Source: a virus (Duplodnaviria > Heunggongvirae > Uroviricota > Caudoviricetes). From it: DNA of 64,000 bases. Under the pieces are notes generated by a model that saw only the letters and a program-made list of their open reading frames with translations, searched no databases and was not told the DNA's origin. A program made the position numbers and the translations under genes. The DNA is taken from IMG/VR virus record IMGVR_UViG_3300033146_004404, positions 64,001 through 128,000 of that record; one strand, written 5' to 3'. Each line of letters starts with the position of its first letter. Position 1 is the first letter of the stretch. This document shows positions 33,831 to 62,658 of the stretch, one piece after another.

Positions 33831-34457
33831 TTATTTAACTAACTTTGGATAAGAGAAATGGTTAGATACAATTCTAAAGAATGCATACATCCCTTTGAAT
33901 TCTTTTATTTCTCCATAGTGCCTAAATCCTAGCCAACTGAAAGGAACTTTTGTAACAAGATCTCTAGTACTTGTTACTATTAGAATTTTCTTAAGTCTAT
34001 CTTCAAGCACCTTACTGTTTTCAGTTGTAAATACTCTAGGACAACCAAATACAATCGTGTCAGCTTCAACGCCATAATTGAAAAATATATCCTCATGTGC
34101 TAAAACTGAAAGAGCTGCTCCTTGAGAGAATCCTCTTATTTTAATTGAGTATCCGTCTTTTAAAGCTTTCTCAGCCTTCTCGTGAACCTTATCTCTCACA
34201 GAATGATACTTCTTTATGAACCCTCTGTGAACTTTGAATTTCTCTTTCATTTCTTTGTATGGCTCTTTACCAGTCCTAAAATTCTGCCACCAATCCATGA
34301 AGCTTCCACTTCCCTGAAATGAAATTGTCATACTTAATTGTCTTATATTATATACAAAATTAACTTCTGTATCTGTATCTGTATTTACATGATTCCATTG
34401 AAAGTCATGTGCGTCATCCCACGCCTCTAATAAATTTAGTTTATCTGTATAAATCAT
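33831..34457 (-). CDS. class 3 lipase (alpha/beta hydrolase)
   Basis: SFQGS, VHRGF, nucleophile GFSQG, FGCPRV, DLVTKVP, C-terminal His. Confidence 0.85.
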   Translation of the reverse strand: MIYTDKLNLLEAWDDAHDFQWNHVNTDTDTEVNFVYNIRQLSMTISFQGSGSFMDWWQNFRTGKEPYKEMKEKFKVHRGFIKKYHSVRDKVHEKAEKALKDGYSIKIRGFSQGAALSVLAHEDIFFNYGVEADTIVFGCPRVFTTENSKVLEDRLKKILIVTSTRDLVTKVPFSWLGFRHYGEIKEFKGMYAFFRIVSNHFSYPKLVK

Positions 34458-35205
34458 CAGTAACTACTCTCCTTTCTGTCACACCTATGTCATCTGGCGT
34501 ATCAATGCTAAGCCCTATATGTCTTATCTTTGCTAGATTTAAACCAAAAGGAATAAATTTGTTTTGTTCTAAACTTTCTAAATCTGCATTGATATCTTTT
34601 GCCCACAATCTCTTACCGTACTTATTAAAAATCTCCTTTGGAAATATAAAGAGACCTATGTGTCTCTTATAACTTGAGAGTGGATGTTTCATTCCACTCT
34701 TACTGGCAGGTATTACTGCCCTTGACGTATAAAGAACTCTTTTGTTCTTATCTACAATCTTACAAGTATTTATACTATCTATATCTTTATAGTCATAAAA
34801 TTTGCTAAACAACGTAGTGATCATATCAGTTGGATGATTCTTCACCTTCTTCCAAACTTTATTAACTTCTTCTGGATCTATTGACGGCTCATCAATAGGC
34901 AGCGAAATATATGTATTATATCCCTTTAGATTTTCTGCCTTACTTGCATAATAAACCCTCTCTGTTCCACATGTCATCTCACTTGATGTTAATACAAATT
35001 CAACTTCTTCTCTTTCACAAATTTCAATTACTCTTTGATCTTCTTTATCACTTGTAACTGCTATCTTACTAGCGAAACTAAACTTCTTTGCTATTCTTAT
35101 AGAGGTTTCTAATAGAGTTCTCCTTCTATAAATTGCTAATGCTTTCTCTGGAAATCTTGTACTATCTAATCTAAACGGAATTATAACACATACTGAATTA
35201 CTCAT
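34441..35205 (-). CDS. kdsB: KdsB-like acylneuraminate/3-deoxy-manno-octulosonate cytidylyltransferase
   Basis: IIPFRLDSTRFPEKAL, GTERV, DEP, HIGLFIF, LESLEQ, IDTPDD. Confidence 0.75.
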   Translation of the reverse strand: MSNSVCVIIPFRLDSTRFPEKALAIYRRRTLLETSIRIAKKFSFASKIAVTSDKEDQRVIEICEREEVEFVLTSSEMTCGTERVYYASKAENLKGYNTYISLPIDEPSIDPEEVNKVWKKVKNHPTDMITTLFSKFYDYKDIDSINTCKIVDKNKRVLYTSRAVIPASKSGMKHPLSSYKRHIGLFIFPKEIFNKYGKRLWAKDINADLESLEQNKFIPFGLNLAKIRHIGLSIDTPDDIGVTERRVVTDDLYR

Positions 35206-35208
35206 CTC

Positions 35209-36111
35209 CTACATCCTTTCATAGTTTGTTGAAGTAAGGCCAAGCCTTTTCTTCTTTTCATACTTACTATTATATATGATAACACTTTCATCATTATCAT
35301 ATAACTGATCACATTTACCACAAAGTAAATTCATGTAAGCTCCACTATGAAAACTCTCTATCTCTTTCATCATTTTACTCTCAAAAACCTCTTCTATAGT
35401 TTGACTTTTCAGGTCGCCAAGTAACAACAAACCATTAAAATCAAAACAACACATGTTAATTGTACCATCAACCTGTATCTGCAATGGCCCATTTTTCGGG
35501 CGCCCGCACGTAGTTTTGGTTGTGGCTCCTTTTCTATATGTCTTCCAAGAACTCCAGTTATGAACCTTCCACACTTCAATTAAATCAACGTAGCTCTTGA
35601 AGTATTTTTCTAAGAGCTTTGCTTTGTATAGATCAGGTTCTATTTGATCTGCTGTAAGTATAAACTTCGTATTCTTTCTCTTAGATCCAAAGTTAGTAAT
35701 GAACTGAAATGCATTCAAGTAACTTTTTTGACTTGATCCTGTTATTTCTACATACTCCTCAACACCTATGTAATGAAAGGAAACTCTAACACTTTCTATA
35801 TCAGCTTCAATTAATTGTTCTACCATCTCTTCTGTTATGCAAGAACCATTAGTAAGAATATTTACTTTGTAGCCATTCTCTTGAAGTATTTTAATCTTAT
35901 CGAAGATGTCAATATCTAGGAACGGCTCTCCCATTCCTGATAGAGTAACTGTTTCTATTTGAAGAGGAAGTTTAAACACTAACTCCTCAAATATTTCATT
36001 AGACATCATAGTTCGACCTCTCTTAAAACCTGATGTGTTTAAAGGACAAAAAATACAATTGTGATTACATACAGTACTTATTTCTATCCTTGCTTCTTTT
36101 GAAGTTGTCAA
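35209..36111 (-). CDS. radical SAM protein with twitch (short SPASM) domain
   Basis: CNHNCIFC, GMGEP, C-terminal CGRP...GTINMCC...CGKCD; likely TTG start 36111 with AGGAG RBS (ORF track 36183). Confidence 0.9.
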   Translation of the reverse strand: MTTSKEARIEISTVCNHNCIFCPLNTSGFKRGRTMMSNEIFEELVFKLPLQIETVTLSGMGEPFLDIDIFDKIKILQENGYKVNILTNGSCITEEMVEQLIEADIESVRVSFHYIGVEEYVEITGSSQKSYLNAFQFITNFGSKRKNTKFILTADQIEPDLYKAKLLEKYFKSYVDLIEVWKVHNWSSWKTYRKGATTKTTCGRPKNGPLQIQVDGTINMCCFDFNGLLLLGDLKSQTIEEVFESKMMKEIESFHSGAYMNLLCGKCDQLYDNDESVIIYNSKYEKKKRLGLTSTNYERM

Positions 36112-37133
36112 TTCATTACTCCTGTCACTACATGTATTACCTGTCTCATATAACAATCTAACCCTATTGATACACGGATCCAATCTTTCATTATATCACA
36201 ATCAAACTCTGTCCTGATAGCTATCAGATAATTCTCAAGCAACTCTTTTCTTATTATCTCTTTGTTCTCTTCTCCAACTTTAAGTAATACAAAATTGGCA
36301 TAAGTAACTCTAGCATAATCAAGTTTTTTAAACTCTCTTCTCCATTCATTTACTTGGTGAAGATTATAAGTACAGTCTCCACCAAAACGTATTTCGTTGA
36401 TTACAGCTTCACTACAAGCAACTGAGTTCACTTCTTGCATCGGTCTATACTGTCTTAATAAATCAATATTTTCTTTACTTGATCTTATACAACCGAGCCT
36501 TATGCCGGCTAGGCCATGGCTCTTTGAGAAGGAATTTATTAATACAACATTCTCTTCAAGAGTTTGATTCATGTAGTGAAGAAAATTAACACCTAGGTCA
36601 GACCAAAGATAATAGTCATAGTAAGTTAAATCTAATACTAATGTCACATTGTTTTCTTTAGCTGCTTGATAAACAGGATAAAACTCTTTAAGCGTTGGCA
36701 TGAATCCTGTTGGATTGTCTGGCAATATTAATAAACAAAACGCTAGCTCGTCACTATATTTCTCAATGTGATCTACAAGAAGCTCTGCATAAGATTCCTT
36801 ATTAAGGTCTTCATCATATCTAATCTTAATAGGAAGTATATTAAACTCGTCTTCAAATACCTCAAGCATACCAAATGAAGGAAACATCCTTAACACTTTA
36901 CTTTTATTTGCTGAAGTAAAGGTTCTATAACAATTTCTTAATGCTTCTTCAGCTCCTCTAGTTAATAAGAGATTATCTTTTCTGCAATTGTACTTATCTG
37001 TTAACGTTTTATACATAGGATAAGTATAAGGATAATCCTTATATGGTCCATACGGAGCTTGGTTGTTATCGAGTCGAACAATTTCTTCTTCAATTAATTT
37101 ATCTTTTTTTACGATAGGTCTTTCTATATTCAT
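36108..37133 (-). CDS. PLP-dependent class I/II aminotransferase (HisC/CobD-like)
   Basis: RLDNNQAP, LTRGAEEAL, PDNPTG, DLTY, SFSKSHGLAGIRLG (PLP lysine). Confidence 0.88.
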   Translation of the reverse strand: MNIERPIVKKDKLIEEEIVRLDNNQAPYGPYKDYPYTYPMYKTLTDKYNCRKDNLLLTRGAEEALRNCYRTFTSANKSKVLRMFPSFGMLEVFEDEFNILPIKIRYDEDLNKESYAELLVDHIEKYSDELAFCLLILPDNPTGFMPTLKEFYPVYQAAKENNVTLVLDLTYYDYYLWSDLGVNFLHYMNQTLEENVVLINSFSKSHGLAGIRLGCIRSSKENIDLLRQYRPMQEVNSVACSEAVINEIRFGGDCTYNLHQVNEWRREFKKLDYARVTYANFVLLKVGEENKEIIRKELLENYLIAIRTEFDCDIMKDWIRVSIGLDCYMRQVIHVVTGVMN

Positions 37134-37925: not shown

Positions 37926-37993
37926 CTACTTAGTAGAAATCTCCGATTTCTACTATATTATTAATGAGAACTACAGTTCTCTTTAGTCAGAAA
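37926..37993. repeat. ~68-bp double-hairpin element, copy A
   Basis: Near-identical to reverse complement of 63823-63889; hairpins TAGTAGAAATC-TCC-GATTTCTACTA and GAGAAC-TACA-GTTCTC. Confidence 0.85.
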
Positions 37994-39007
37994 TATTTTT
38001 CTCTTTTCAAGATATTTATAAATCTCTTTATATATATGACAGGTGATCTTATCGTCTATTCCATACTCACCATTTTTATTATAATAGAACGCAGAACATC
38101 CAAAGTTGCATATATCTTTAGCATAACAGGTATCACATCCTATTGCTTTAACATACTCGTTCTTCTTTTCTATAAGAGAAATATATTTCTGAATTTGTTT
38201 CAGTTCAAGAAAATCTTTTCCTGTCTTGATTGGTATTGGTATATCATAGTTAGGACATAATGTTTCAGTGCCATCAGGTTCAATAGATATCATTGACATC
38301 CCAGCACCACAGAACATTGTATCACATGTACTCTTATTATTTGTTTTTCCATTTATTATATCATCAAATAATTCATAGATCTCAACGAAAGATGTATAGC
38401 CAGTATTGATATACTCATTTAAGAATAATTCATATGCCTTCTCAAACAAATTATCTATATAATCATTGGCTATAAAATTTACACAGTTCGCACCAAGTTG
38501 AGTTATTCCCTTTAGCTCATTAATGTTATCGTCATTGATTACAGTAGAGATAGTATAGTTGATATTGTATTTCTTTAATAGCTCAATTTTATCTAGGATA
38601 ACAGAGTTCTTTACTTCTCTACTTCTCTCATTACTTGGGCCATCATAGCTTACACCTAATGATACATTAAACCTAGAGAGTAGAACAGCCATTTCCTCAT
38701 CAATCAATACAGTGTTAGTCTGTAGATTAACTGAGTGGTTTATGTCAGTTAAAGTATTCTCTATATAGAGTAGGATCCTAGACAGCAGATTACTTCCAAT
38801 CATTAATGGCTCGCCGCCGAATAATGTAATGAAGATTCTGTCTGTTCTACTGTTCTTTATATAGTCAGCGTGAAGATGATCTATTGTGTTTTTTAATATA
38901 GGGAAAGTAATAGTCTCTTTGCTCTTATGTTTTTGGTAACAATAAGAGCAATTGAGATTGCATTGATTGGTTAGTCTAATTGTAAGTTGCTTTACTTGAC
39001 TAAACAC
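37961..39007 (-). CDS. radical SAM/SPASM maturase
   Basis: CNLNCSYC, FGGEP, SPASM CDTMFCGAG...C...CDTCYAKDICNFGC...C. Confidence 0.92.
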   Translation of the reverse strand: MFSQVKQLTIRLTNQCNLNCSYCYQKHKSKETITFPILKNTIDHLHADYIKNSRTDRIFITLFGGEPLMIGSNLLSRILLYIENTLTDINHSVNLQTNTVLIDEEMAVLLSRFNVSLGVSYDGPSNERSREVKNSVILDKIELLKKYNINYTISTVINDDNINELKGITQLGANCVNFIANDYIDNLFEKAYELFLNEYINTGYTSFVEIYELFDDIINGKTNNKSTCDTMFCGAGMSMISIEPDGTETLCPNYDIPIPIKTGKDFLELKQIQKYISLIEKKNEYVKAIGCDTCYAKDICNFGCSAFYYNKNGEYGIDDKITCHIYKEIYKYLEKRKIFLTKENCSSH

Positions 39008-43449: not shown

Positions 43450-43653
43450 TTAACTCTTATTCATATTGAAGTCAATAGCTTTAACAAATTTATTAAAACA
43501 TTCTTGGCAGACTACTTCTTTGGTTTCCATTGACATGTTACCTATAGATTCCCAAGTTTCAATACTTGTTTCACGTTCAGCTTCTATTTTAAAGCCTATA
43601 AATAATTTTAATTCTTTGATTTTTTTGTTGCATCTTGTACATTCATTTATCAT
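43450..43653 (-). CDS. small CxxC-x40-CxxC protein
   Basis: CTRC...CQEC; paralog of 46204..46401 and of the C-terminus of 47628..48755. Confidence 0.75.
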   Translation of the reverse strand: MINECTRCNKKIKELKLFIGFKIEAERETSIETWESIGNMSMETKEVVCQECFNKFVKAIDFNMNKS

Positions 43654-44738
43654 TCTGTTATCTCCTTAGCGATATCTGTTAATAGTAATGAGATTTTACA
43701 TAAATTAGGATTAAGCTCTTCCAGACTGTTTGTATGTTGTTCATGCCCTGCAACGCATCCACCATTACACCAATAAGCAGCTTTACAATTTTCACAATCT
43801 TTATTTACTTTAAATTTATTAAAATCTGTTCTAGCTTTCATTACATCAAAGAAAGAATTATTAGTATATCCATTGAAGATATCTCCATAGAAATAATTAA
43901 AGTCTTTAGGGGCTTCTTCAAGATAAGAAAACATTTGATGACAAAATATCAATTGACCATTAGGGGAAATGGACACATTGCTTTGTGGGGTAAAACAAAA
44001 GTGATTGGAATCATTATCTTTATTTAAAGTTCTTAGAAGACCATTGAATAGTGGCTGCTTCTTAACTTTGAATAAATAGATCATTTGGTTATATAAAGAT
44101 TCTATCATTTCATCTGTAATCTCCATAGAGAAATTGAATTGTATATTTGGATGCAATCCTATTTTTACTAAGAAGTCATAACTATCAGCAAAGTCTTTAT
44201 AGTTATTCTCATGAACTACGAATAGTCCTGCTACTTGCTTATTGTATTGATGTGATTTAGACATCAGCTCAGGTAATCTTTTCATAGTGTCATTCCAAGA
44301 ACCACTCTTATCTATTTTATATCTATTCCTGTCATGAACTTCTCTTTTACCATCTAAAGATACACCTACTTGTATATTGTTTTCTATTAAGAAATCTATA
44401 TCTTTAGAATCAAAGAGAGTGAGATTAGTATTAAGATGAAGACGAAAGTCTATATTAGTTTTCTTTAACTCTTCTATAAGGCTAGTAACAAAAGTCCAAT
44501 TGACTGAAGGTTCTCCGCCGAATAGAGAGATCTCTATTTGTTCATCTGCTTTAGTTATTTCTATAAATTTTATAAGGTCAGGTATCATTTCTATTTGCAT
44601 GGAAGTATTAGCTTTTTTATCTGTTACTTTAGATCTGTCACAGTAGTGGTCGTCATAGCAATACTTGCACCTTAGATTACATTCTTCTGTTATTATCAAT
44701 TCGTAATAGTTAAGGCTTACTTCTTCTGGTATAAACAT
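43650..44738 (-). CDS. radical SAM/SPASM maturase
   Basis: CNLRCKYC, FGGEP, CFTPQ...C...CENCKAAYWCNGGC...C. Confidence 0.92.
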   Translation of the reverse strand: MFIPEEVSLNYYELIITEECNLRCKYCYDDHYCDRSKVTDKKANTSMQIEMIPDLIKFIEITKADEQIEISLFGGEPSVNWTFVTSLIEELKKTNIDFRLHLNTNLTLFDSKDIDFLIENNIQVGVSLDGKREVHDRNRYKIDKSGSWNDTMKRLPELMSKSHQYNKQVAGLFVVHENNYKDFADSYDFLVKIGLHPNIQFNFSMEITDEMIESLYNQMIYLFKVKKQPLFNGLLRTLNKDNDSNHFCFTPQSNVSISPNGQLIFCHQMFSYLEEAPKDFNYFYGDIFNGYTNNSFFDVMKARTDFNKFKVNKDCENCKAAYWCNGGCVAGHEQHTNSLEELNPNLCKISLLLTDIAKEITE

Positions 44739-44749
44739 TTATTATCCTT

Positions 44750-45499
44750 TTAAAGAGACAATAAGTCCTTTAACTCTTTTATTTCATTTAAGTATAAAGC
44801 TTTTGCCTCTTCACTGAAAGTGTTGTCGATTGAATATGAGAAACAATTAGTACAGTCAGCTCCGTGAAGAGTATTGAAGTTGTAACAAGTTCCACATTCT
44901 TTATTATTTATGCCTTGGAAGTTATCATAAAGAATCATATCAGGTAATAATATAATCTCTGGAACTACCTGTAATAGATAAGGAGTAAGTAATTCAAAGT
45001 CTTCTGGAAATTCTTCTTCTTTGTATTCTAACACTTTATTTAAATATTCTTTGAATAATTCAAGGTCTTCAATATTGTATGATTGAAGTTCTTCTATGAA
45101 ATCTTTTTTGTAATGAACTACATACTCTACATTATCTATAGAAGATTTAATGTCAAGGAATGTTCTCCACTCCTCTATATATAATTCTATTACTATTTTA
45201 CTTATAGAGTCTTTTAATTTACTGTAGTTTAATTCAACTGCTTGATTATTAAAATCTTTTTCTTTTATTCTAACAATAGAATCTCTCATATTGATGAATG
45301 AAAGAGATGATTTACTGTTTAGGTTAAGGACTATTCTGTTGTTTGCAGAATGTATTGAGAAAGCAGAGAGTAATTTTTCATAGTCAAATAAGTGTTCTCC
45401 GTAGAATAAAAGTTCTTCTTGATTGTTCTTGAGAAACTCTTTTAATGTTTCACTGAAGTTTACTTCTTGATCGTTCGTCTTAGGTAATATTATTAACAT
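44750..45499 (-). CDS. degenerate radical-SAM/SPASM-like protein lacking CxxxCxxC
   Basis: FYGEHL resembles GGEPL, LLPD resembles ISPDG, retains CGTC...CTNC; SAM-cluster cysteines absent. Confidence 0.5.
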   Translation of the reverse strand: MLIILPKTNDQEVNFSETLKEFLKNNQEELLFYGEHLFDYEKLLSAFSIHSANNRIVLNLNSKSSLSFINMRDSIVRIKEKDFNNQAVELNYSKLKDSISKIVIELYIEEWRTFLDIKSSIDNVEYVVHYKKDFIEELQSYNIEDLELFKEYLNKVLEYKEEEFPEDFELLTPYLLQVVPEIILLPDMILYDNFQGINNKECGTCYNFNTLHGADCTNCFSYSIDNTFSEEAKALYLNEIKELKDLLSL

Positions 45500-45502
45500 G
45501 TC

Positions 45503-46204
45503 TTAACCGTTTGAATAATTAACATGATTAGAATGGCTAGCGTGAGTTGCATTAGTCCCACTAAACGTATTCGTATAAGCATGCCAAGCAGTAATATCTT
45601 TTGTCCTTAATTCACTAACAGCTGAAGCTAATCCTTCTAATTCTTGCTTATCTATCTTATTAGCATTTTCTTCCTTCGCTTCATTAATTAAAGTAGGGTT
45701 ACCTAATTGTCCTAATAGATCATTGAACTGCGCTCCTAGATTTTTTACTTTATAAGCAGTAGCTAATTCATCGTCATCAAAAGTTAAAGCTGATGCAGCG
45801 AGAGTAACTCCATCTCCCTTCTGCGAAATTAAAGTATTTAAATTAGTTTGAACTTCTTCTAGCATATCACCTAAATTGTATCCTACCTTTTCACTATCTA
45901 ATACTTTAACAGAACCATTATCGTCGTCATCCCAATATGTCCAATTAAAATCTGTTTGTGCTAGTGCTCCACTTGTTATAGAATAACTTTTATGATTAGA
46001 GTAGCTATAATGTATAGCACAGTCATCGATATTATTTATGTAAATAACGTGATTGTAATGACTGTTATCGCTGTACCCTATTCTCCAGCAGTTATTGTCA
46101 TAATCTGTATAATCTGTATATGAATATTTATAACAGTATAAAGAGTTAGTATGAGTTCTACTATCACTTCCTTGTGCATAATTAAAGTATTCACTATATC
46201 CCAT
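45503..46204 (-). CDS. candidate radical-SAM substrate: His/Tyr-X-Asn/Asp/Ser repeat protein
   Basis: Likely start 46204 (TAATG overlap; ORF track 46237); N-term YTD-YTD-YDN, YSD, HYN, YSN-HKS; C-term HAS-HSN-HVN-YSN. Confidence 0.7.
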   Translation of the reverse strand: MGYSEYFNYAQGSDSRTHTNSLYCYKYSYTDYTDYDNNCWRIGYSDNSHYNHVIYINNIDDCAIHYSYSNHKSYSITSGALAQTDFNWTYWDDDDNGSVKVLDSEKVGYNLGDMLEEVQTNLNTLISQKGDGVTLAASALTFDDDELATAYKVKNLGAQFNDLLGQLGNPTLINEAKEENANKIDKQELEGLASAVSELRTKDITAWHAYTNTFSGTNATHASHSNHVNYSNG

Positions 46205-46401
46205 TATTCTTCCTTTGTATTCATATTGATAAAACATTCTTGAAACTTATCAAAGCAGCTAGAACAAACATTCTCATGGTCTAATACTGTGTTCTTAGAT
46301 ATCGCTTTAGATTTATCTAATATTATCTTTTCAGTTTCTATTTCTAACTCCATTTTTATACTAAAATCTTTTATTTCTTTATTGCATATGTCACATATCA
46401 C
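46204..46401 (-). CDS. small CxxC-x39-CxxC protein
   Basis: CDIC...CSSC; paralog of 43450..43653. Confidence 0.75.
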   Translation of the reverse strand: MICDICNKEIKDFSIKMELEIETEKIILDKSKAISKNTVLDHENVCSSCFDKFQECFINMNTKEE

Positions 46402-47635
46402 TACTTATCTCCAATGAATTCATCGTCGCACTTATTTTATTCTTAATGTTAAACTTCTTCAAACTCTTTATCTTATCATTAGATAGAACTTTAAAGTTAT
46501 TATCAACGCATGACTGTAATATAGAGTCTAAATTCTTTAGTATATAAGAATAAAAGCTCTTGTAATATCCACATATTAAGACTTGATCTATTCCATGTTT
46601 TTTGTGTTTAGAATAATAAAATGCGTCACATCCATGTGAACAAATATAACTCGCATAACATGTATCACATCCTGTTTCTTTATATGTCTTATCAGTAATC
46701 TTTCCTTTTTCTATAACTTTCTTTAATTGATATAATCCAAGGAAATCATAATCTAATGCATTCATCATATAAATTTCAGGAAAGCTTTCGCTGTGTCTAT
46801 CACAGTAATTAATTGTTCCGTTAGGTTCAATTCCTATCATAGATATGCCTGTGCCACACCATCTACTATCACATCCAGACTTTGAAGTTGTTTCATGTTC
46901 TGTTAATATATCTATTAGAGTTGACATAAGTAATGCTTGTATAGAACTATCTTTTGGCTTAATTCCTTCTATAAGATTATCTATTTCAGGCTTAGCTACT
47001 AATTCAAAAAACTCTTTTCCTGTTAGCTCAATCTTACTCTCTGCGTCTATCATCTCTTCTACAAAGTTTATCTTGTAGCTTCCTGATATTTTATCCATAT
47101 ATCTTTTCGTTGTTTCTATCTTATCGACATTGTCTTTAGTAGCAATTCCTATAAATCCAAAGTCTACTTTGCTATCTTCTAATAAGGTAAACTTCTCTTC
47201 GAAGAATTCTTGAGAAAAACTACATCTAGCGTTATTAGCTCCATCTATTCCATCAAATGATACTCCTATCTTCACATCAAATTTCTGTAATACTTTAGCT
47301 ATATCATCTGTTAATAATGTTATATTTGATTGACAACCAAAATTATAATTAAGATTGTTCTTGTCAAATACATTCTTCGCATAGTCTAATCTTTTATATA
47401 ACTCTTTTTCTCCTAGTAATAAAACTTCACCGCCGTGGAGAATGAAAGATAATTCTTCATTCTCTTTGCCGCTTACTACTCTCTGCTCTGCTATTCTATC
47501 TGTAATCTTTCTATATAATTCAAAGGATATAAGTTTCCCTTTATCTTCTTCTTTGTCCTTCATAAAACAATAAGAACAATTAAGATTACAATCTTTTGTC
47601 ATCCTGAATATTATTAAGTTAGTAAATCTAAACAT
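46391..47635 (-). CDS. radical SAM/SPASM maturase
   Basis: CNLNCSYC, HGGEV, CDSRWCGTG...C...CDTCYASYICSHGC...C. Confidence 0.92.
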   Translation of the reverse strand: MFRFTNLIIFRMTKDCNLNCSYCFMKDKEEDKGKLISFELYRKITDRIAEQRVVSGKENEELSFILHGGEVLLLGEKELYKRLDYAKNVFDKNNLNYNFGCQSNITLLTDDIAKVLQKFDVKIGVSFDGIDGANNARCSFSQEFFEEKFTLLEDSKVDFGFIGIATKDNVDKIETTKRYMDKISGSYKINFVEEMIDAESKIELTGKEFFELVAKPEIDNLIEGIKPKDSSIQALLMSTLIDILTEHETTSKSGCDSRWCGTGISMIGIEPNGTINYCDRHSESFPEIYMMNALDYDFLGLYQLKKVIEKGKITDKTYKETGCDTCYASYICSHGCDAFYYSKHKKHGIDQVLICGYYKSFYSYILKNLDSILQSCVDNNFKVLSNDKIKSLKKFNIKNKISATMNSLEISSDM

Positions 47636-48755
47636 ATATTTCCTTCACTTTTTCTAATGACTTGTAAAAGTTTTTAGCGCACTCTATACATAAATTTTCT
47701 TTAGAACTCACGTCCCAATTAGGAATGTATTCCCAATCCCATTCATTTCTTAGTCTATGCACTTCCATAGAGAAATTAATATTAGTTTGTATGTCTTCTA
47801 TTTCACTGTGACATTTAGTACAAGTCTTTTTATTTGCACTCTTTATAGGATATAAGTCTAACTTTTTAAAGTATTCAGCGTATTCTTTCCATACTCCAGC
47901 ACATCTATCATTAAATAAACATTCTATGCACTTATTAGACTTTACTTTCTCATTTAAATCATTAGAATTATAATCCTCACATATTCCATCAGCATCAAAA
48001 TTACCATTTCCTTTATTAGCAGGATCAAATCCTTTTCTATCACAACTATTCAATAAAACACTCATGTCTGAGTTTAGTACAATGTCTTGATAAGGATATA
48101 AATAACATATAGGTATTGCTTCAGTCTGGATTAAGTGAGCATAGTTCTTCAAGATGTCTTTGAGAATCGGTTCTAGCTCAGTTAACGAGCATAATACCAT
48201 ATCTCTATTATTCCATGCTTCTCCATTAGGATGAGGGTAAGTCATATTCATTTTTATCCCAGGAGATATTTTCTGTATGTAATCATAAGTCTCTTTTAAA
48301 TAAGGAGCATTCAATCTACTAATAACAGTCTGTGTAGTGCAATCAACATTATACTTCAACAGATTAATAAATCCCTTAATCGTTTTTATCCACATTCCTT
48401 CTTGTCTTACAATCTTATCATGGACATCTTCTCTATGAGAATGTATCGCTATCAATACAGAATCGAGATATTCACTACACTCTTTGGTGAATTGTTCGTT
48501 ATGGAACATAGCACCATTAGTCTGTAAGGAAGTCTTGTGTCCTGTATCTTTAGCGTATTTAAGAAGCTCTATAAAATCTTTTCTTATAGTTGCTTCTCCA
48601 CCTGTAAACCCTACAGAATTATCCAAAGGGATCTTATCTATAACTCTCTTAACTTCATCTGTAGTTAAATCATTTGTATCTCTCTTGTCCGCTACTACAC
48701 AGTGGATACAATCGTTATTACACTTGAATCCTACTTTTAAATCAAATCTACTCAT
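47628..48755 (-). CDS. radical SAM protein (HxsC-like) with fused C-terminal CxxC-x40-CxxC domain
   Basis: CNNDCIHC, TGGEAT, LQTNG, EAIPIC, CIEC...C.G; then CTKC...CIEC domain. HxsC likeness is from recollection of the family pattern. Confidence 0.8.
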   Translation of the reverse strand: MSRFDLKVGFKCNNDCIHCVVADKRDTNDLTTDEVKRVIDKIPLDNSVGFTGGEATIRKDFIELLKYAKDTGHKTSLQTNGAMFHNEQFTKECSEYLDSVLIAIHSHREDVHDKIVRQEGMWIKTIKGFINLLKYNVDCTTQTVISRLNAPYLKETYDYIQKISPGIKMNMTYPHPNGEAWNNRDMVLCSLTELEPILKDILKNYAHLIQTEAIPICYLYPYQDIVLNSDMSVLLNSCDRKGFDPANKGNGNFDADGICEDYNSNDLNEKVKSNKCIECLFNDRCAGVWKEYAEYFKKLDLYPIKSANKKTCTKCHSEIEDIQTNINFSMEVHRLRNEWDWEYIPNWDVSSKENLCIECAKNFYKSLEKVKEIYV

Positions 48756-48762
48756 AACCTAT

Positions 48763-49233
48763 TTATGTCATCATAATGAACATCGCAATCCGCTGCTCGC
48801 TTTTATCAAATTTACTAACAAGCGCTTTTCCCACCACTCGCCCAAAACCTATGTCATACCACCGTTTAACGGTGCATAGACCGTTCTTGCCTGCGATAAG
48901 GAGATCTCCTACTTTACAAGGTTCTGCTATCCTTACATTTACTCTACCTGCTAGCCCTATAGGAACCTTGTGACTCATATTGTCACTGCCTAGTACCATA
49001 CCATAGGTGTCACTATAGACACCTATAACTTTCCTATCTCCACGCTTAGTGCAACGTGTAGCGCCATTTGCGCCTTGAACGATGACATCGCCTGGAATCA
49101 TCAATCGATTATCGAGATTGACTGGAAAGAATTCAGCATAATCATTCCACATCGCACCATAAACTCTATTAGCGGTTAGAGCACCACCTACAATCAAATT
49201 ACCATAAACTGAACTATTACCTAAGACAGCCAT
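48763..49233 (-). CDS. short fibre protein with intramolecular-chaperone/peptidase G2-like autocleavage domain
   Basis: DYAEFF then GDVIV...VIGVYSD...VPIGLAGRVNVR...GDLL...VVGKAL. Confidence 0.7.
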   Translation of the reverse strand: MAVLGNSSVYGNLIVGGALTANRVYGAMWNDYAEFFPVNLDNRLMIPGDVIVQGANGATRCTKRGDRKVIGVYSDTYGMVLGSDNMSHKVPIGLAGRVNVRIAEPCKVGDLLIAGKNGLCTVKRWYDIGFGRVVGKALVSKFDKSEQRIAMFIMMT

Positions 49234-58836: not shown

Positions 58837-61800
58837 TTAAGAACAACGGCTCCAACCACAATTGTTGCATGCTTGGCATCCTTCTTTGAAAACAAGTTCT
58901 TTATTTCCACATTCCGGACAAGAAGAAGAACTCTTAACTACTTCGCCATCTCTTATGTATCTCTTAAGAACTCTAGCTGCGGTTCTTTCAAACCCAAGGA
59001 ATTCTTTAGTCTTATTTAACTGATCTACTATGAACTGAAGTGGTATCTTATGTCTTAAATCCATAGAAATGAATCTAGCAAGACCACCATTCTTTCCACC
59101 AAAATCTTCAGATAAATCCTTAGTTATTATTTTTCCATTAACCATTAATGAATATAAACCGTCCTCATCATTTTTAATTATTTTCCCTTTAAGATTCTTC
59201 AAAGAGTTAAATTTTTCGTCGTCAGTGGACGTCACGAAGATCTCATAGGGATAATTCTCATCATACATTCCTATCAGAATTACATATTTTTCATTCTCGA
59301 ATTTAACTGTATGAATGTCGCAATTAAGTTCAGTAGGTCTTTTCGGTGCAATTCTATCTCCAAGGTCAGCAGCTTTCTTAGCTTCGTTTGTTTCAAGAAT
59401 TCCTTTCATACTTCCTTCAGGATTAAAAGTAGTAAATCCTTTTAAGCCATTATTATAAGCATGCTTAAATAGATCTTTATATTCTTCAAATGTAGTTCCA
59501 TTAGGAAGATTTAGTGTCTTGCTAATGCTATGATCTATATATTTTTGAAAGATGATCTGTACTTCCATCGCATTATAAACATCAATGTCAAAAGTTGTTG
59601 CAAAGAAGTCTGGAGCTGGTTCATCATATCCTACAGGACAATCATTCTCTTTTCTCCATTCAATGTATTTTAACCAAGCATAATCATGAACTTTTTCTTG
59701 TTTTACTTCATCCCCAAACCCTGTTCTAATATTTCTATTGTATGACAGTGAGAAGATTGGCTCTATACCTGAAGAACAGTTCTGTCCTAGCGACAATGAT
59801 GTCGTTCCAGTAGGAGCTGTAGTATTTAATGCTATATTCCTTAGCCCGTGTTCCTCTATCTCTTTCTGCATTGACTCTGGTAAGTTCTTTATGAAATTAG
59901 ATTCTAAGATCTTTTTATCAAATCCAGGAAAGCTTCCTTTTTCTTTTGCTAATGTTATAGATGAAGCGTATGAAATATCTCTTAAATGTTCCCCGATCAG
60001 CTTTGAAAGATTAAAAGATTCTTGTGATCCATATGTAATTCTCATCATAGCGAATGCATCAGCTAATCCTGTAAAACCAAGACCAATTCTTCTCCATTTC
60101 TTTGACAGTTCTTCAATCTTTTCTAGAGGATATTTAGTAACAGATAACACGTTATCTAAGAACCTTACTCCAATTGCAACTGACTCCTGAAAAGACTGAA
60201 GATCAAAGTAAGCATCTCTAGTGAAAGAATTTTTTACAAATTGTGTTAGGTTAACTGATGATAGACAGCATAGTGAGTATGCGGGCATGCAATTATGCAC
60301 TAATATTCCATTTGCAAAAAAGTTATGATCTTCTTCTACTGTTATATCATAAACATCTTCTTTTTCTCCCCATCTTACATCATCTACAACGTTAGTATAA
60401 ACTGTATCTCCACGATGCTTTAAAACTGACTTCTTTTTTACTTTAACGCCTTGGTTATAATCAGGATGTCCTATGTTTGTTATAGAAGAATGTGTTTCAT
60501 GTTTTAATTTTTCTAAATTTTTTCTAGAATTATTTAAAGTATTTTCATCTAAATGATGAACATTTAAACCTTCTTCTGCTTTTTTTCCTAGAAGATTTAA
60601 ATGATGTTCTAAAACATAATCTTCTTGAGTAGAAGACTTTACTTTTACATAATGCTCATTCTGCATGCTTCTATTTAAATTTACTAAGTGAGGGTATTCT
60701 CCTCTTCTTTTAGCTCTCTTGCCTAAATCATTCCACATGTCCAGATATTCTTTCGCTGTCATTGTTTGAGTTGGGCTTATAAAAAGTTTGTGATTTGGAG
60801 TAAGTTTTAAAACTTCTTTATTTCTAAAGTGAATCTCTATAGTTTGACTCTTAACTCCTGTCTTATCTCCCCATGTAACAAGATTTGTGTTCAGTTTTCC
60901 TTTCTTATCAACGGAATAAGCTCTTACAGTCTCTCCAGAATTAACTTTCTGAATTAAGTCTTTTATTTGGAGAATTCCAAGATCTGTATTAACTCTAGTA
61001 TCTCCAGTAACACAAATTTCTCCACAATTATGAACTAAAACACCAGAACAATTTAAATAATTATCATCAGTTTTTGTAATTATATAAAAATTATGATTAT
61101 CTTCAACTGTTAAGTCAAAAACCTCTTCTGTATCTAAATTTTCTATACTTTCAACAAAAACATCATAAGAAAAATCAACATTTTTATCTTCTTTTATAGG
61201 CAAAGGTGGAAGCTTTTCTAAAGCTTCCAAAGTTCTATCTTCGCTCCAACTATATCTTTTTGCATTAGCTAAAACATTCTTATGTCTATTATAAATAGAT
61301 CTGTCTTCGAAAGACATTTTATTTATAGGGTTGTTTTTACCTGTCCTATCTGTTTTTACCTTATGCTCTACAATAGAAATTAACTGTAAGTTTTCTAACT
61401 TATCCAAAATAGAATTATTGTTTATGTGATCTATTTGATACTCACTAGTATCGTATTTTCCATTAGAAAATTCCCACAGCATTCTATACTGTCTTGCATA
61501 ACCATTACTTTTAGAATTAATAGTTCTATAAGATTTATTTGAGTTTTTGTTTGAATAGGAATAAAACTTTCCTAGGTTTATTCCTATAGCATCTTTTGCT
61601 TCTATATATCCACCGTCTTTCTTAGCTAATCTATGTTCTGGAGTACATTTAAAGTTTGTACCATCAGACAGATTAACTCTTACTACTTCTCTTTCGCCTG
61701 TTTTAAACGCAATTGCTTCTTTTATCTCTGCTTTCCAATGACCCTGAACCCACCTTCCAGAATATACTGGAAACTTTTCATTCTCTACAGCTAGAACTCC

Positions 61801-62658
61801 AATCTCTTCTGCGTTTCTTCCATCAGCAACTGCAACTAATGTTTCTCCAGTAAAACAAGGATTTACTTCCTGTATATCGAATGCATAGTAACCATTATTA
61901 TATTTATTTACAGTATCGAGATTTAAGATGCCAGGTTCATTATGCATATAAGCATTTTCTGTCATAAGGTTATAAAGATACTTAGCTTTAACTGTCTTAT
62001 AAACTTTATTGTCAAATACAAGATCCCAATTGCTATCGTTTTCTACAGCTTCCATGAACTTATCTGTAATACCTACAGATATATTGAACTGAGTTAATTC
62101 CTTATTTGAATCACCTTGTTTCGCTGTGATAAAAGCTTCGATCTCAGGATGATCTACATTAAGAATAGCTATATGAGCTGCTCGCCTTGCTCCACCTGTC
62201 TGTATAATCTTTGCGCTTTCATTAAATACTTTCATGAAAGATAATACGCCTGAAGATTTTCCTCCGGTTGATAAGCTGGCTTCTACTGGTCTTAGCTTAG
62301 AGAAATTCATTCCAACTCCGCCACCAGTCCTTGAAATCTGTGCGTCTTCTCTAAGAGAAGCGTAAATTTCTTCTATACTATCATCAACTCCAATTGTATA
62401 GCAGTTATTGTAATAAGGCATTCTTGCATTTGTTCTTGCATTAGCAAGTATTCTTCCTGCTGGGATAAGTCTATGTTCTGCTATTTCTTTATAGAATTTA
62501 TTCTTCCAAGTTTCTCTTAGCTCAGGAGTTTCTTCTGCTGCTGCAATAGTTTCTGCTATTCCTTCAAATACCTCAAACTCATTCTTTTCATCGTTTATCA
62601 TATATTTTTTAGCAAAGATTTCCTTGCTGATATTCTGCATCCATTTATACTCTGTCAT
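58837..62658 (-). CDS. nrdJ: class II (B12-dependent) ribonucleotide reductase with two inteins
   Basis: PAGRIL, RTGGGVG, NP|CGEI|C, TTAPTGT, C-terminal TSCPD-like and Zn-ribbon domains. Confidence 0.9.
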   Translation of the reverse strand: MTEYKWMQNISKEIFAKKYMINDEKNEFEVFEGIAETIAAAEETPELRETWKNKFYKEIAEHRLIPAGRILANARTNARMPYYNNCYTIGVDDSIEEIYASLREDAQISRTGGGVGMNFSKLRPVEASLSTGGKSSGVLSFMKVFNESAKIIQTGGARRAAHIAILNVDHPEIEAFITAKQGDSNKELTQFNISVGITDKFMEAVENDSNWDLVFDNKVYKTVKAKYLYNLMTENAYMHNEPGILNLDTVNKYNNGYYAFDIQEVNPCFTGETLVAVADGRNAEEIGVLAVENEKFPVYSGRWVQGHWKAEIKEAIAFKTGEREVVRVNLSDGTNFKCTPEHRLAKKDGGYIEAKDAIGINLGKFYSYSNKNSNKSYRTINSKSNGYARQYRMLWEFSNGKYDTSEYQIDHINNNSILDKLENLQLISIVEHKVKTDRTGKNNPINKMSFEDRSIYNRHKNVLANAKRYSWSEDRTLEALEKLPPLPIKEDKNVDFSYDVFVESIENLDTEEVFDLTVEDNHNFYIITKTDDNYLNCSGVLVHNCGEICVTGDTRVNTDLGILQIKDLIQKVNSGETVRAYSVDKKGKLNTNLVTWGDKTGVKSQTIEIHFRNKEVLKLTPNHKLFISPTQTMTAKEYLDMWNDLGKRAKRRGEYPHLVNLNRSMQNEHYVKVKSSTQEDYVLEHHLNLLGKKAEEGLNVHHLDENTLNNSRKNLEKLKHETHSSITNIGHPDYNQGVKVKKKSVLKHRGDTVYTNVVDDVRWGEKEDVYDITVEEDHNFFANGILVHNCMPAYSLCCLSSVNLTQFVKNSFTRDAYFDLQSFQESVAIGVRFLDNVLSVTKYPLEKIEELSKKWRRIGLGFTGLADAFAMMRITYGSQESFNLSKLIGEHLRDISYASSITLAKEKGSFPGFDKKILESNFIKNLPESMQKEIEEHGLRNIALNTTAPTGTTSLSLGQNCSSGIEPIFSLSYNRNIRTGFGDEVKQEKVHDYAWLKYIEWRKENDCPVGYDEPAPDFFATTFDIDVYNAMEVQIIFQKYIDHSISKTLNLPNGTTFEEYKDLFKHAYNNGLKGFTTFNPEGSMKGILETNEAKKAADLGDRIAPKRPTELNCDIHTVKFENEKYVILIGMYDENYPYEIFVTSTDDEKFNSLKNLKGKIIKNDEDGLYSLMVNGKIITKDLSEDFGGKNGGLARFISMDLRHKIPLQFIVDQLNKTKEFLGFERTAARVLKRYIRDGEVVKSSSSCPECGNKELVFKEGCQACNNCGWSRCS
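60292..61014 (-). mobile_element. intein 2 of NrdJ (241 aa) with HNH endonuclease
   Basis: CVTGDT...FFANGILVHN, +1 Cys; NVHHLDENTLNNSRKNL. Confidence 0.9.
61027..61857 (-). mobile_element. intein 1 of NrdJ (277 aa) with HNH endonuclease
   Basis: CFTGET...SGVLVHN, +1 = catalytic Cys of NPCGE; QIDHINNNSILDKLENL. Confidence 0.9.

Follow-up and report, generated by a model that had tools for sequence, protein, structure and literature searches.

What does a large phage do with a whole battery of radical S-adenosylmethionine (rSAM) enzymes? The question is raised by a 64,000-nucleotide stretch of viral DNA (the window), bases 64001-128000 of the 201-kb IMG/VR virus record IMGVR_UViG_3300033146_004404 (Caudoviricetes; G+C content of the whole record, 32.7%), in which rSAM genes surround a gene for a 233-residue protein, here the target, with runs of three-residue units (an aromatic residue, any residue, then Asn, Asp or Ser) at both of its ends. 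Repeats matured by rSAM enzymes are known in small secreted peptides, the triceptides (PMC11002830), and since 2026 in one antiphage effector, HxsA (PMC13128918). We propose that the target is probably a fibre-like substrate of the adjacent rSAM module; within that proposal roughly half of the weight falls on cyclophane-type links. The gene and its parts are as follows.

45503..46204, minus strand: target gene (P0002), encoding a fibre-like protein of 233 residues with terminal triplet arrays
45965..46204, minus strand: N-terminal block, residues 1-80, with Tyr/His-X-Asn/Asp/Ser triplets, three Cys and a conserved 'GYxEYF' start
45584..45952, minus strand: central core, residues 85-207, predicted to be helical and homologous within the family
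45506..45583, minus strand: C-terminal block, residues 208-233, HAYTN...HAS-HSN-HVN-YSN-G

The longest open reading frame (ORF) at this position spans 45503-46237 and would encode 244 residues. We judged the 233-residue form, starting at ATG 46204, to be the better call because this ATG has an AAGGA Shine-Dalgarno site 6-7 nt on its 5' side, overlaps the stop codon of the preceding ORF (TAATG) and yields an N-terminus, MGYSEYF, that in the alignment matches those of homologues (MAYNEYF in L009, GYKEYF in L010; L numbers denote related loci and P numbers proteins). The 233-residue ORF of the preliminary description is therefore real, and the triplets, the three Cys residues and the C-terminal sequence that it listed are all present on the minus strand: HTN(18), YTD(29), YTD(32), YDN(35), YSD(44), HYN(49), HYS(65), YSN(68) and HKS(71) in the N-terminal region, Cys24, Cys39 and Cys62, and at the other end W207-H-A-Y-T-N followed by HAS(221)-HSN-HVN-YSN(230). 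The helical core of about 130 residues that it described holds in so far as this segment can be aligned among homologues; the helices themselves come from the DSSP assignment of a low-confidence AlphaFold2 (AF2) model. No hydrophobic stretch was seen by eye at the N-terminus of the translation, and searches of Pfam, PHROGs, NCBIfam and PADLOC gave zero matches for the target. Leads to 'phage fibre' in the ESM Atlas appeared for the target only below 0.9, and we did not use them as evidence.

To what extent could the triplets be a product of composition? The target contains 20 [WFYH]x[NDS] triplets in total and has the aromatic-X-X3 motif by which triceptide substrates are recognized. The N-terminal 80 residues hold 11 such triplets where shuffling predicts 7.6 (P=0.06), and the C-terminal 32 residues hold 5 where 2.4 are expected (P=0.03). 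Tyr, Asn, Ser, Asp and His are frequent in this AT-rich genome, and the raw triplet count mainly reflects composition. The register of the triplets is another matter. Three in-register runs of at least three triplets are present, YTDYTDYDN, HYSYSNHKS and HASHSNHVNYSN; in region-wise shuffles the two N-region runs had P=0.005, as did the single four-triplet run of the C-region, and when the whole protein was shuffled three runs were reached in 1 of 10,000 trials (P=1e-4). The target is also the only ORF of the 201-kb genome with several in-register triplet runs. These runs are not explained by composition alone.

Direct searches with the target returned only the target itself, whether by tblastn against 50,697 phage records, by a word-indexed search of 5.8 billion proteins or by full HMMER against 1.84 billion representatives. 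Single-protein searches for related loci, made with the rSAM enzyme and with the 249-residue neighbour, gave no result. The adjacent 414-residue rSAM enzyme, on the other hand, has 83 homologous clusters in metagenomes, many of them on contigs of 100-290 kb. Related loci were gathered through contigs encoding homologues of this enzyme, together with a profile scan of IMG/VR, and all of their ORFs were scanned for runs of [HYWF]x[SNDTG]. Almost every close locus encodes a protein with triplet runs at both ends. The member in L163 has 217 residues and reads MSHASHSSHANHSN ... HANHSSHGNHASHGSHASHGNHASHGSHVNHANEV; that in L162 has 264 residues, with about 15 triplets at each end. Further members were found in L008 (246 residues), L009 (307), L007 (242), L011 (248), L166 (268), L005 (281) and L004 (624), and as two paralogues in L010 (316 and 331). 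In BLASTP against a 10-sequence database the target matched L010_7316 (31% identity over 176 residues, E=1e-8) and L009_8851 (25% over 212 residues, E=1e-5), which are linked in turn to the members in L005, L004 and L163. The N-terminal block of the target aligns with those of L009, L010, L005 and L008, and all eight sequences of alignment A2 have the target's Asn70 and His224.

These proteins share a plan: a variable N-terminal region that closes with a triplet block next to the core, then a helix, the first, with the pattern 'I.aIK.lRDKL', a segment 'ATF.D...AT.E...QY.AL' with a helix 'GD.ItK....LK.d...LA', and a triplet block at the C-terminus. Their common build is an N-terminal triplet array, a core predicted to consist of three helices and a C-terminal triplet array. 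The period and the positions of the blocks are fixed in alignment A2, while His, Tyr and Trp alternate at position 1, and Asn, Ser and Asp at position 3. These exchanges are also seen within one close clade of five further proteins, P0086-P0090 (NHSSHSSYSA, DHSNHSSHSS, NHGNHNSHSN), which were found with the family profile, independently of the rSAM genes. We ruled out N-glycosylation sequons (N-X-S/T) as the meaning of the pattern since many arrays (HAN, HDN, YAN) lack them. Scans of viral and metagenome collections with profiles of the core returned nothing, or only a twin of the L004 member. A degenerate DNA pattern for (His-X-Asn/Ser)x5, tried as a reverse sample and control, was rejected; its hits in viral contigs were mostly perfect 9-nt microsatellites. 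The target is a member of a family of fibre-like phage proteins that evolves fast. In the L009 member (L009:8851-9774), residues ~30-150 are made up of units of about 11 residues, 'SNSNN(Y/A)CSTS(H/Y)', with one Cys each; these Cys residues are possible thioether sites for PapB-like enzymes.

Family members are found where the enzymes are. Among 12 distinct phage contigs carrying a close homologue of the 414-residue rSAM enzyme, 11 encode a family member within 10 kb. In the de-duplicated rSAM-anchored loci L003-L042, a triplet run was present in 14/96 ORFs lying no more than 300 nt from an rSAM gene and in 4/508 of the remaining ORFs there (odds ratio 21.5, Fisher P=5e-9); of the latter four, three are no farther than about 1 kb from an rSAM gene. 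Contigs of the P0086 type carry a minimal module composed of a large fibre protein, a 230-residue repeat protein, rSAM enzymes of 310 and 421 residues and an 88-residue protein; BLASTP identified the three ORFs after the repeat protein, in the L011 twin, as HxsC-like, SPASM and Cys4. On one such contig the module is followed, two ORFs further along, by a holin gene, and a gene for a serine recombinase lies near the contig end. We looked up three contigs of members found by profile: an ORF follows straight after the repeat protein in all three, and the rSAM pair is present in two, the ORF on the P0087 contig being cut by the contig end and having no family call. The minimal module contains no sugar-pathway genes, which speaks for the repeat protein and the rSAM pair being one functional unit. 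The Campylobacter phage CP220, which has a distant HxsC-like match, was considered as a locus model and rejected, as its rSAM gene stands in a DNA-metabolism context with no repeat protein.

The fibre character of the family is seen most directly in two relatives. The members in L004 and L005 contain a Peptidase_S74 domain (55.9 and 56.9 bits against a Pfam cut-off of 22), which follows the C-terminal triplet block without a gap, ...HGSHGSHGS|SSDRRLK in L005 and ...HASHTSHAS|TSDERLK in L004. S74 chaperones drive tail fibres and spikes to form trimers and afterwards remove themselves by self-cleavage. Should the cut fall where the domain starts, the triplet block would become the mature C-terminal tip in L004 and L005. 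These two members thus resemble known S74 fibres and spikes; unlike them, the target, in which a Pfam search found no Peptidase_S74, and most relatives are without the domain, and the target ends at the triplet block itself (...HVNYSNG). We know of no fibre with aromatic-X-polar triplet arrays or dedicated rSAM enzymes. The L004 member also carries a phage Gly-rich fibre domain, and its PHROG matches are tail-fibre families; the target itself is flanked by LamG and tail-fibre genes. The sequences suggest that the family consists of fibre proteins, probably trimeric. The S74 and Gly-rich domains of the relatives and the position of the genes in tail modules support the target being a structural fibre or tip protein, from which we infer its presence in the virion.

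Triplet arrays were also seen in phage proteins outside the family. Five proteins unrelated to the target family, which we call Class B (L022:7418-8005, L026:9371-9955, L029:2272-3393, L032:14826-15512 and L039:9051-9980), begin with three 'GS(I/L)W(V/I)EG..L.YID' units, after which a long tail is made up of His/Tyr/Trp-X-Asp/Asn/Ser triplets, as many as about 50 in L029. In 4/5 loci no more than ~25 nt separates the gene from a single SPASM rSAM gene, which is distantly related, and two ORFs (~2 kb) intervene in L022; the five proteins have zero Pfam or PHROG matches. Large proteins of 727-1179 residues with short triplet runs (e.g. HSDYTDYTDHFD) are encoded at L021:6432-9971, L035:7351-9960 and L018:7081-9264. 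A SPASM rSAM gene follows directly in L021 and L035 and one ORF on in L018; the L021 protein has a LamG domain, that of L035 a tail-fibre PHROG match and that of L018 no family match. The triplet theme may extend to full-size fibres.

In the window the target gene is part of a tightly packed block on the minus strand. On its 5' side are two LamG/CBM (carbohydrate-binding module) fibre-like genes and an intramolecular-chaperone ORF whose homologues in L005, L009 and L011 make up the C-terminal ends of large fibre proteins. An HxsC-like and a SPASM rSAM gene and a Cys4 gene then lead up to the target, which is followed by a 249-residue ORF, a SPASM rSAM gene, a second Cys4 gene and two further rSAM genes. 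In order of transcription, omitting the target, the genes are:

48763..49233, minus strand: ORF of 156 residues with a Peptidase_G2-type intramolecular chaperone domain, ending the LamG fibre genes
47628..48755, minus strand: HxsC-like rSAM enzyme, 375 residues, with a fused C-terminal Cys4 domain
46391..47635, minus strand: SPASM rSAM enzyme of peptide-maturase-like type, 414 residues
46204..46401, minus strand: Cys4 protein, CxxC-x39-CxxC, 65 residues, a conserved rSAM partner
44750..45499, minus strand: 249-residue protein of no known family, with a C-terminal CxxC...CxxC
43650..44738, minus strand: SPASM rSAM enzyme, 362 residues, best match a PapB-type ranthipeptide maturase (below cut-off)
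43450..43653, minus strand: second Cys4 protein, 67 residues
42184..43446, minus strand: SPASM rSAM enzyme, 420 residues
41204..42187, minus strand: rSAM enzyme, 327 residues, kept in related clusters
37961..39007, minus strand: SPASM rSAM enzyme, 348 residues

Between the last two lies a 734-residue ORF of no known family. Beyond the 348-residue enzyme are two twitch-type rSAM genes with aminotransferase and cytidylyltransferase genes, a lipase, a 928-residue tail fibre and a 2468-residue protein. The local order is matched in L009, which has HxsC-like, SPASM-362-like, target homologue, Cys4, SPASM-420-like and rSAM-327-like genes; there the homologue of the 362-residue SPASM enzyme lies directly upstream of the target homologue. 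No homologue of the 249-residue neighbour was found in the related loci. Sugar-pathway genes accompany large rSAM clusters repeatedly (window 34441-37133, L003:9489-11560, L005:15141-16498 and L163:13672-16604). They encode Kdo-8-P synthase-like, CMP-Kdo synthetase-like, transaldolase-like and aminotransferase proteins and adjoin baseplate genes in L003 and L005; the recurrence of these Kdo-type genes suggests a separate sugar-tailoring branch. Elsewhere in the window (58837-62658), the large subunit of a ribonucleotide reductase (1273 residues) is broken by segments matching HNH endonucleases, consistent with inteins.

What kind of chemistry do the enzymes point to? The best NCBIfam match of the 375-residue enzyme is HxsC (TIGR03977), with E=2.4e-30 and 105.5 bits against a cut-off of 267.9, and the next non-Hxs family follows at 72 bits; by this comparison the enzyme is HxsC-like and not an equivalog. 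The four SPASM enzymes match only peptide-modifying maturases in NCBIfam (PapB, anSME, YhhB, QhpD, DarE/DynA, AmcB, FxsB, GrrM and HxsB). The HxsB model (TIGR03978) scores 32-83 bits with those rSAM enzymes of the window that match it, against a cut-off of 370, and is outranked by other maturase families. Among solved structures the 414-residue enzyme best matches the thioether synthase CteB and ChlB's rSAM domain; ChlB is said, in work attributed to Morishita et al. 2024, to form cyclophanes.

A Cys4 protein follows the enzyme of the SPASM-414/420 type in nearly every close locus, with all four Cys residues invariant. In the window the domain (CxxC-x39/40-CxxC) occurs as two free-standing copies, which are kept in every related cluster examined, and as a third copy fused to the C-terminus of the HxsC-like enzyme (residues 305-375; window 47628-47842). 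This fusion implies that the Cys4 domain is likely to work together with the HxsC-like enzyme. No Hxs model matched the Cys4 proteins at E<=10, and Cys4 is a zinc-ribbon-like domain unrelated to HxsD, in apparently the same role. Fused double-rSAM proteins of 640-670 residues, the C-terminal half of which is HxsC-like, are encoded at L004:6040-8001, L006:8072-9997, L162:8064-10001 and L163:7985-9997. In L004, L162 and L163 they come immediately downstream of the repeat protein; that of L006 has no adjacent repeat protein.

Two known systems can be compared with this module. In triceptides, SPASM rSAM enzymes join the aromatic ring of residue i to C-beta of residue i+2, and the proven pairs include Trp-Asn/Asp/Arg, Phe-Asn/Ser, Tyr-Asp (YxdB), His-Ala (HaaB) and Tyr/His-Arg (YhhB) (PMC11002830). 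The YTD, YSN, HSN, HAS and HVN triplets of the target fit this rule. As in the systems of XncB, OscB, MscB, YxdB, HaaB and YhhB (PMC11002830), repeated aromatic-X-residue motifs stand beside SPASM rSAM enzymes. Unlike the triceptide peptides, the phage substrate would be a structured protein of 217-624 residues that comes without leader, protease or transporter, and the phage system, known here from sequence, has several rSAM enzymes and a Cys4 partner, with enzyme matches below threshold.

In the bacterial HXS system, the rSAM enzymes HxsB and HxsC together with the small HxsD mature HxsA, which has five HxS repeats (Li et al. 2026, PMC13128918). HxsC binds HxsD; HxsA has a peptidoglycan-binding domain, is exported to the periplasm and in its mature form blocks phage DNA entry from there; it carries a +8 Da (+C/-4H) change, of unknown structure, mapped to SHRSS (PMC13128918). 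The phage locus is alike in placing a triplet-repeat protein, rather than a short peptide, beside a pair of HxsC-like and SPASM rSAM enzymes and a small partner, and in tying that partner to the HxsC-type enzyme, by a complex in HXS and by a fusion in the window. It differs in that its enzymes score far below the cut-offs (HxsC 105 vs 268 bits, HxsB 51 vs 370), in gene order, in an aromatic position that can be Tyr, His or Trp rather than His only, in arrays at both termini of a predicted helical core, in being phage-encoded within tail modules and in the S74 domain of relatives. The target, judged from its translation and from Pfam, also has neither an export signal nor a peptidoglycan-binding domain. 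At curated cut-offs the phage module shows none of HxsA, HxsB, HxsC, HxsD and an exported, anchored effector, by which membership in HXS is defined; below cut-off, the L008 relative matches HxsA4 and HxsA. Two viral contigs (L073:5087-7918 and L081:2657-5488) encode a SPASM rSAM enzyme (~482 residues), an HxsC-like rSAM enzyme (~378 residues) and an 87-residue HxS-repeat peptide that matches the HxsA, A2 and A4 models below cut-off; this trio may be a phage- or prophage-borne system of the HXS type.

In the explanation we favour, the target would be a short fibre-like virion protein, probably trimeric, with a helical core capped at both ends by triplet arrays. The arrays would be substrates of the HxsC-like rSAM enzyme, with its Cys4 zinc-ribbon partner, and of one or more SPASM enzymes of the maturase type. 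The likeliest chemistry would be a side-chain cross-link within each triplet, a C-C bond of the triceptide type that joins the aromatic ring to residue i+2 at its C-beta, each triplet losing 2 Da; the three Cys residues might also carry PapB-like thioethers. Cross-linked in this way, the otherwise floppy, low-complexity ends would become rigid tips that resist proteases. We infer the modification, its kind and its purpose from the comparative data set out above. The preliminary description had proposed an rSAM substrate with sites at both termini in a virion or fibre setting, either stapled by poly-cyclophane chemistry or metal-binding. Comparative genomics strongly supports the substrate and its setting, the latter through Peptidase_S74 on two relatives; as to whether homologues occur mostly without rSAM neighbours, the opposite was found in the 11 of 12 rSAM-anchored contigs. 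Cyclophane stapling fits the motifs, but no enzyme reaches a cyclophane or Hxs cut-off, and HxsA, the only HxS-repeat protein characterized so far, bears the +8 Da change instead.

A number of observations weigh against this explanation. Every rSAM match is far below its NCBIfam cut-off (48-86 bits against 310-450 for YhhB, AmcB, FxsB, GrrM and XyeB), and for the SPASM enzymes the cyclophane families do not outrank the thioether (PapB) or anSME families. The target gave no match at E<=10 to the HxsA models (TIGR03979 and the A2-A4 variants), and its N-terminal block, Tyr-rich and irregular, does not look like the clean HxS arrays found in some relatives. Neither the target nor the cluster has a leader peptide, peptidase or exporter/transporter, and the triplet arrays start near residue 1. 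AF2 gave a predicted local distance difference test score of 32 from the single sequence and 38 with an 8-row alignment, an unusable structure. The loci were sampled starting from the rSAM enzymes, related phages do not count as independent, and unbiased reverse searches for the family recovered few members. The one contig of the 12 that departs from the pattern (L165:9138-11586) has an HxsC-like, SPASM and Cys4 trio among replication genes and no triplet-repeat protein within 10 kb; the substrate of this trio may be encoded elsewhere or be a different one. Finally, the cluster also holds sugar-pathway genes, and some of its rSAM enzymes therefore surely act on other substrates.

The alternative that survives best is a different chemistry: formylglycine at Ser or Cys (anSME-like), thioethers only, from Cys to Asp or Asn (PapB-like), or a change of the HxsA type. 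The top NCBIfam matches of the SPASM enzymes are indeed anSME and PapB, a Cys next to 'DDC' is common to the target and three relatives (both L010 paralogues and L009), and the +8 Da (+C/-4H) change of HxsA at SHRSS is a precedent (PMC13128918). We consider it unlikely, though deserving of serious attention, in that a conserved aromatic residue at position 1 with a residue bearing a C-beta hydrogen at position 3 is what a cyclophane requires, and many members (L162, L163, L008) have no Cys in their arrays at all.

Improbable in our judgement, though a live alternative, is an unmodified metal-binding or adhesive fibre tip, with the rSAM enzymes acting on other substrates such as a Kdo-like sugar pathway. 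The tips of T4 fibres bind metal through His motifs, and the ends of the target are His-rich; the cluster and its relatives do contain aminotransferase, cytidylyltransferase, Kdo-8-P synthase-like and transaldolase-like genes as well as twitch-type rSAM enzymes that suit sugar chemistry. However, His, Tyr, Trp and Phe replace one another freely at position 1 of the triplets, and two of these, Trp and Phe, do not serve as metal ligands. The adjacency to rSAM genes is highly non-random, the enzymes resemble peptide maturases and not sugar enzymes, and the minimal module keeps the repeat protein beside the rSAM pair where no sugar genes are present.

Less probable still is a non-structural, HXS-like effector that would serve in the infected cell, for example in superinfection exclusion or in countering host defence: the gene content does parallel HxsC, HxsB, small partner and repeat protein, HXS blocks phage DNA entry (PMC13128918) and the L073 and L081 viral contigs place an 87-residue HxS peptide after a SPASM and HxsC-like pair, but the target, unlike HxsA, has no visible N-terminal hydrophobic stretch and no detected peptidoglycan-binding domain, S74, a chaperone specific to fibres, and a phage Gly-rich fibre domain occur in relatives, the genes follow large fibre genes in tail modules, and a loosely related group includes large tail-type triplet proteins, one with LamG and one with a tail-fibre PHROG match.

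We return to the target as a modified fibre-like protein. A broader proposition can be built upon it, namely that phages run machinery like that of ribosomally made, post-translationally modified peptides on their virion proteins, in which an HxsC-like/Cys4 and SPASM module would staple fibre tips with strained cross-links and would be tied evolutionarily to bacterial HXS; we put this forward tentatively, as a possibility that may well fail. A full-text search of one paper library on rSAM and triceptide chemistry and phages found no report of phage virion proteins as rSAM substrates. If true, the proposal would add a new kind of post-translational chemistry of the virion and a new class of post-translationally stapled structural protein, and would explain the puzzling batteries of rSAM genes in large phages. 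It would provide a natural example of cyclophane-type stapling of folded proteins, at both termini and without a leader, that could be useful for protein engineering. HXS defence would gain a phage counterpart, and the same chemistry would then be found on both sides of the phage-host conflict.

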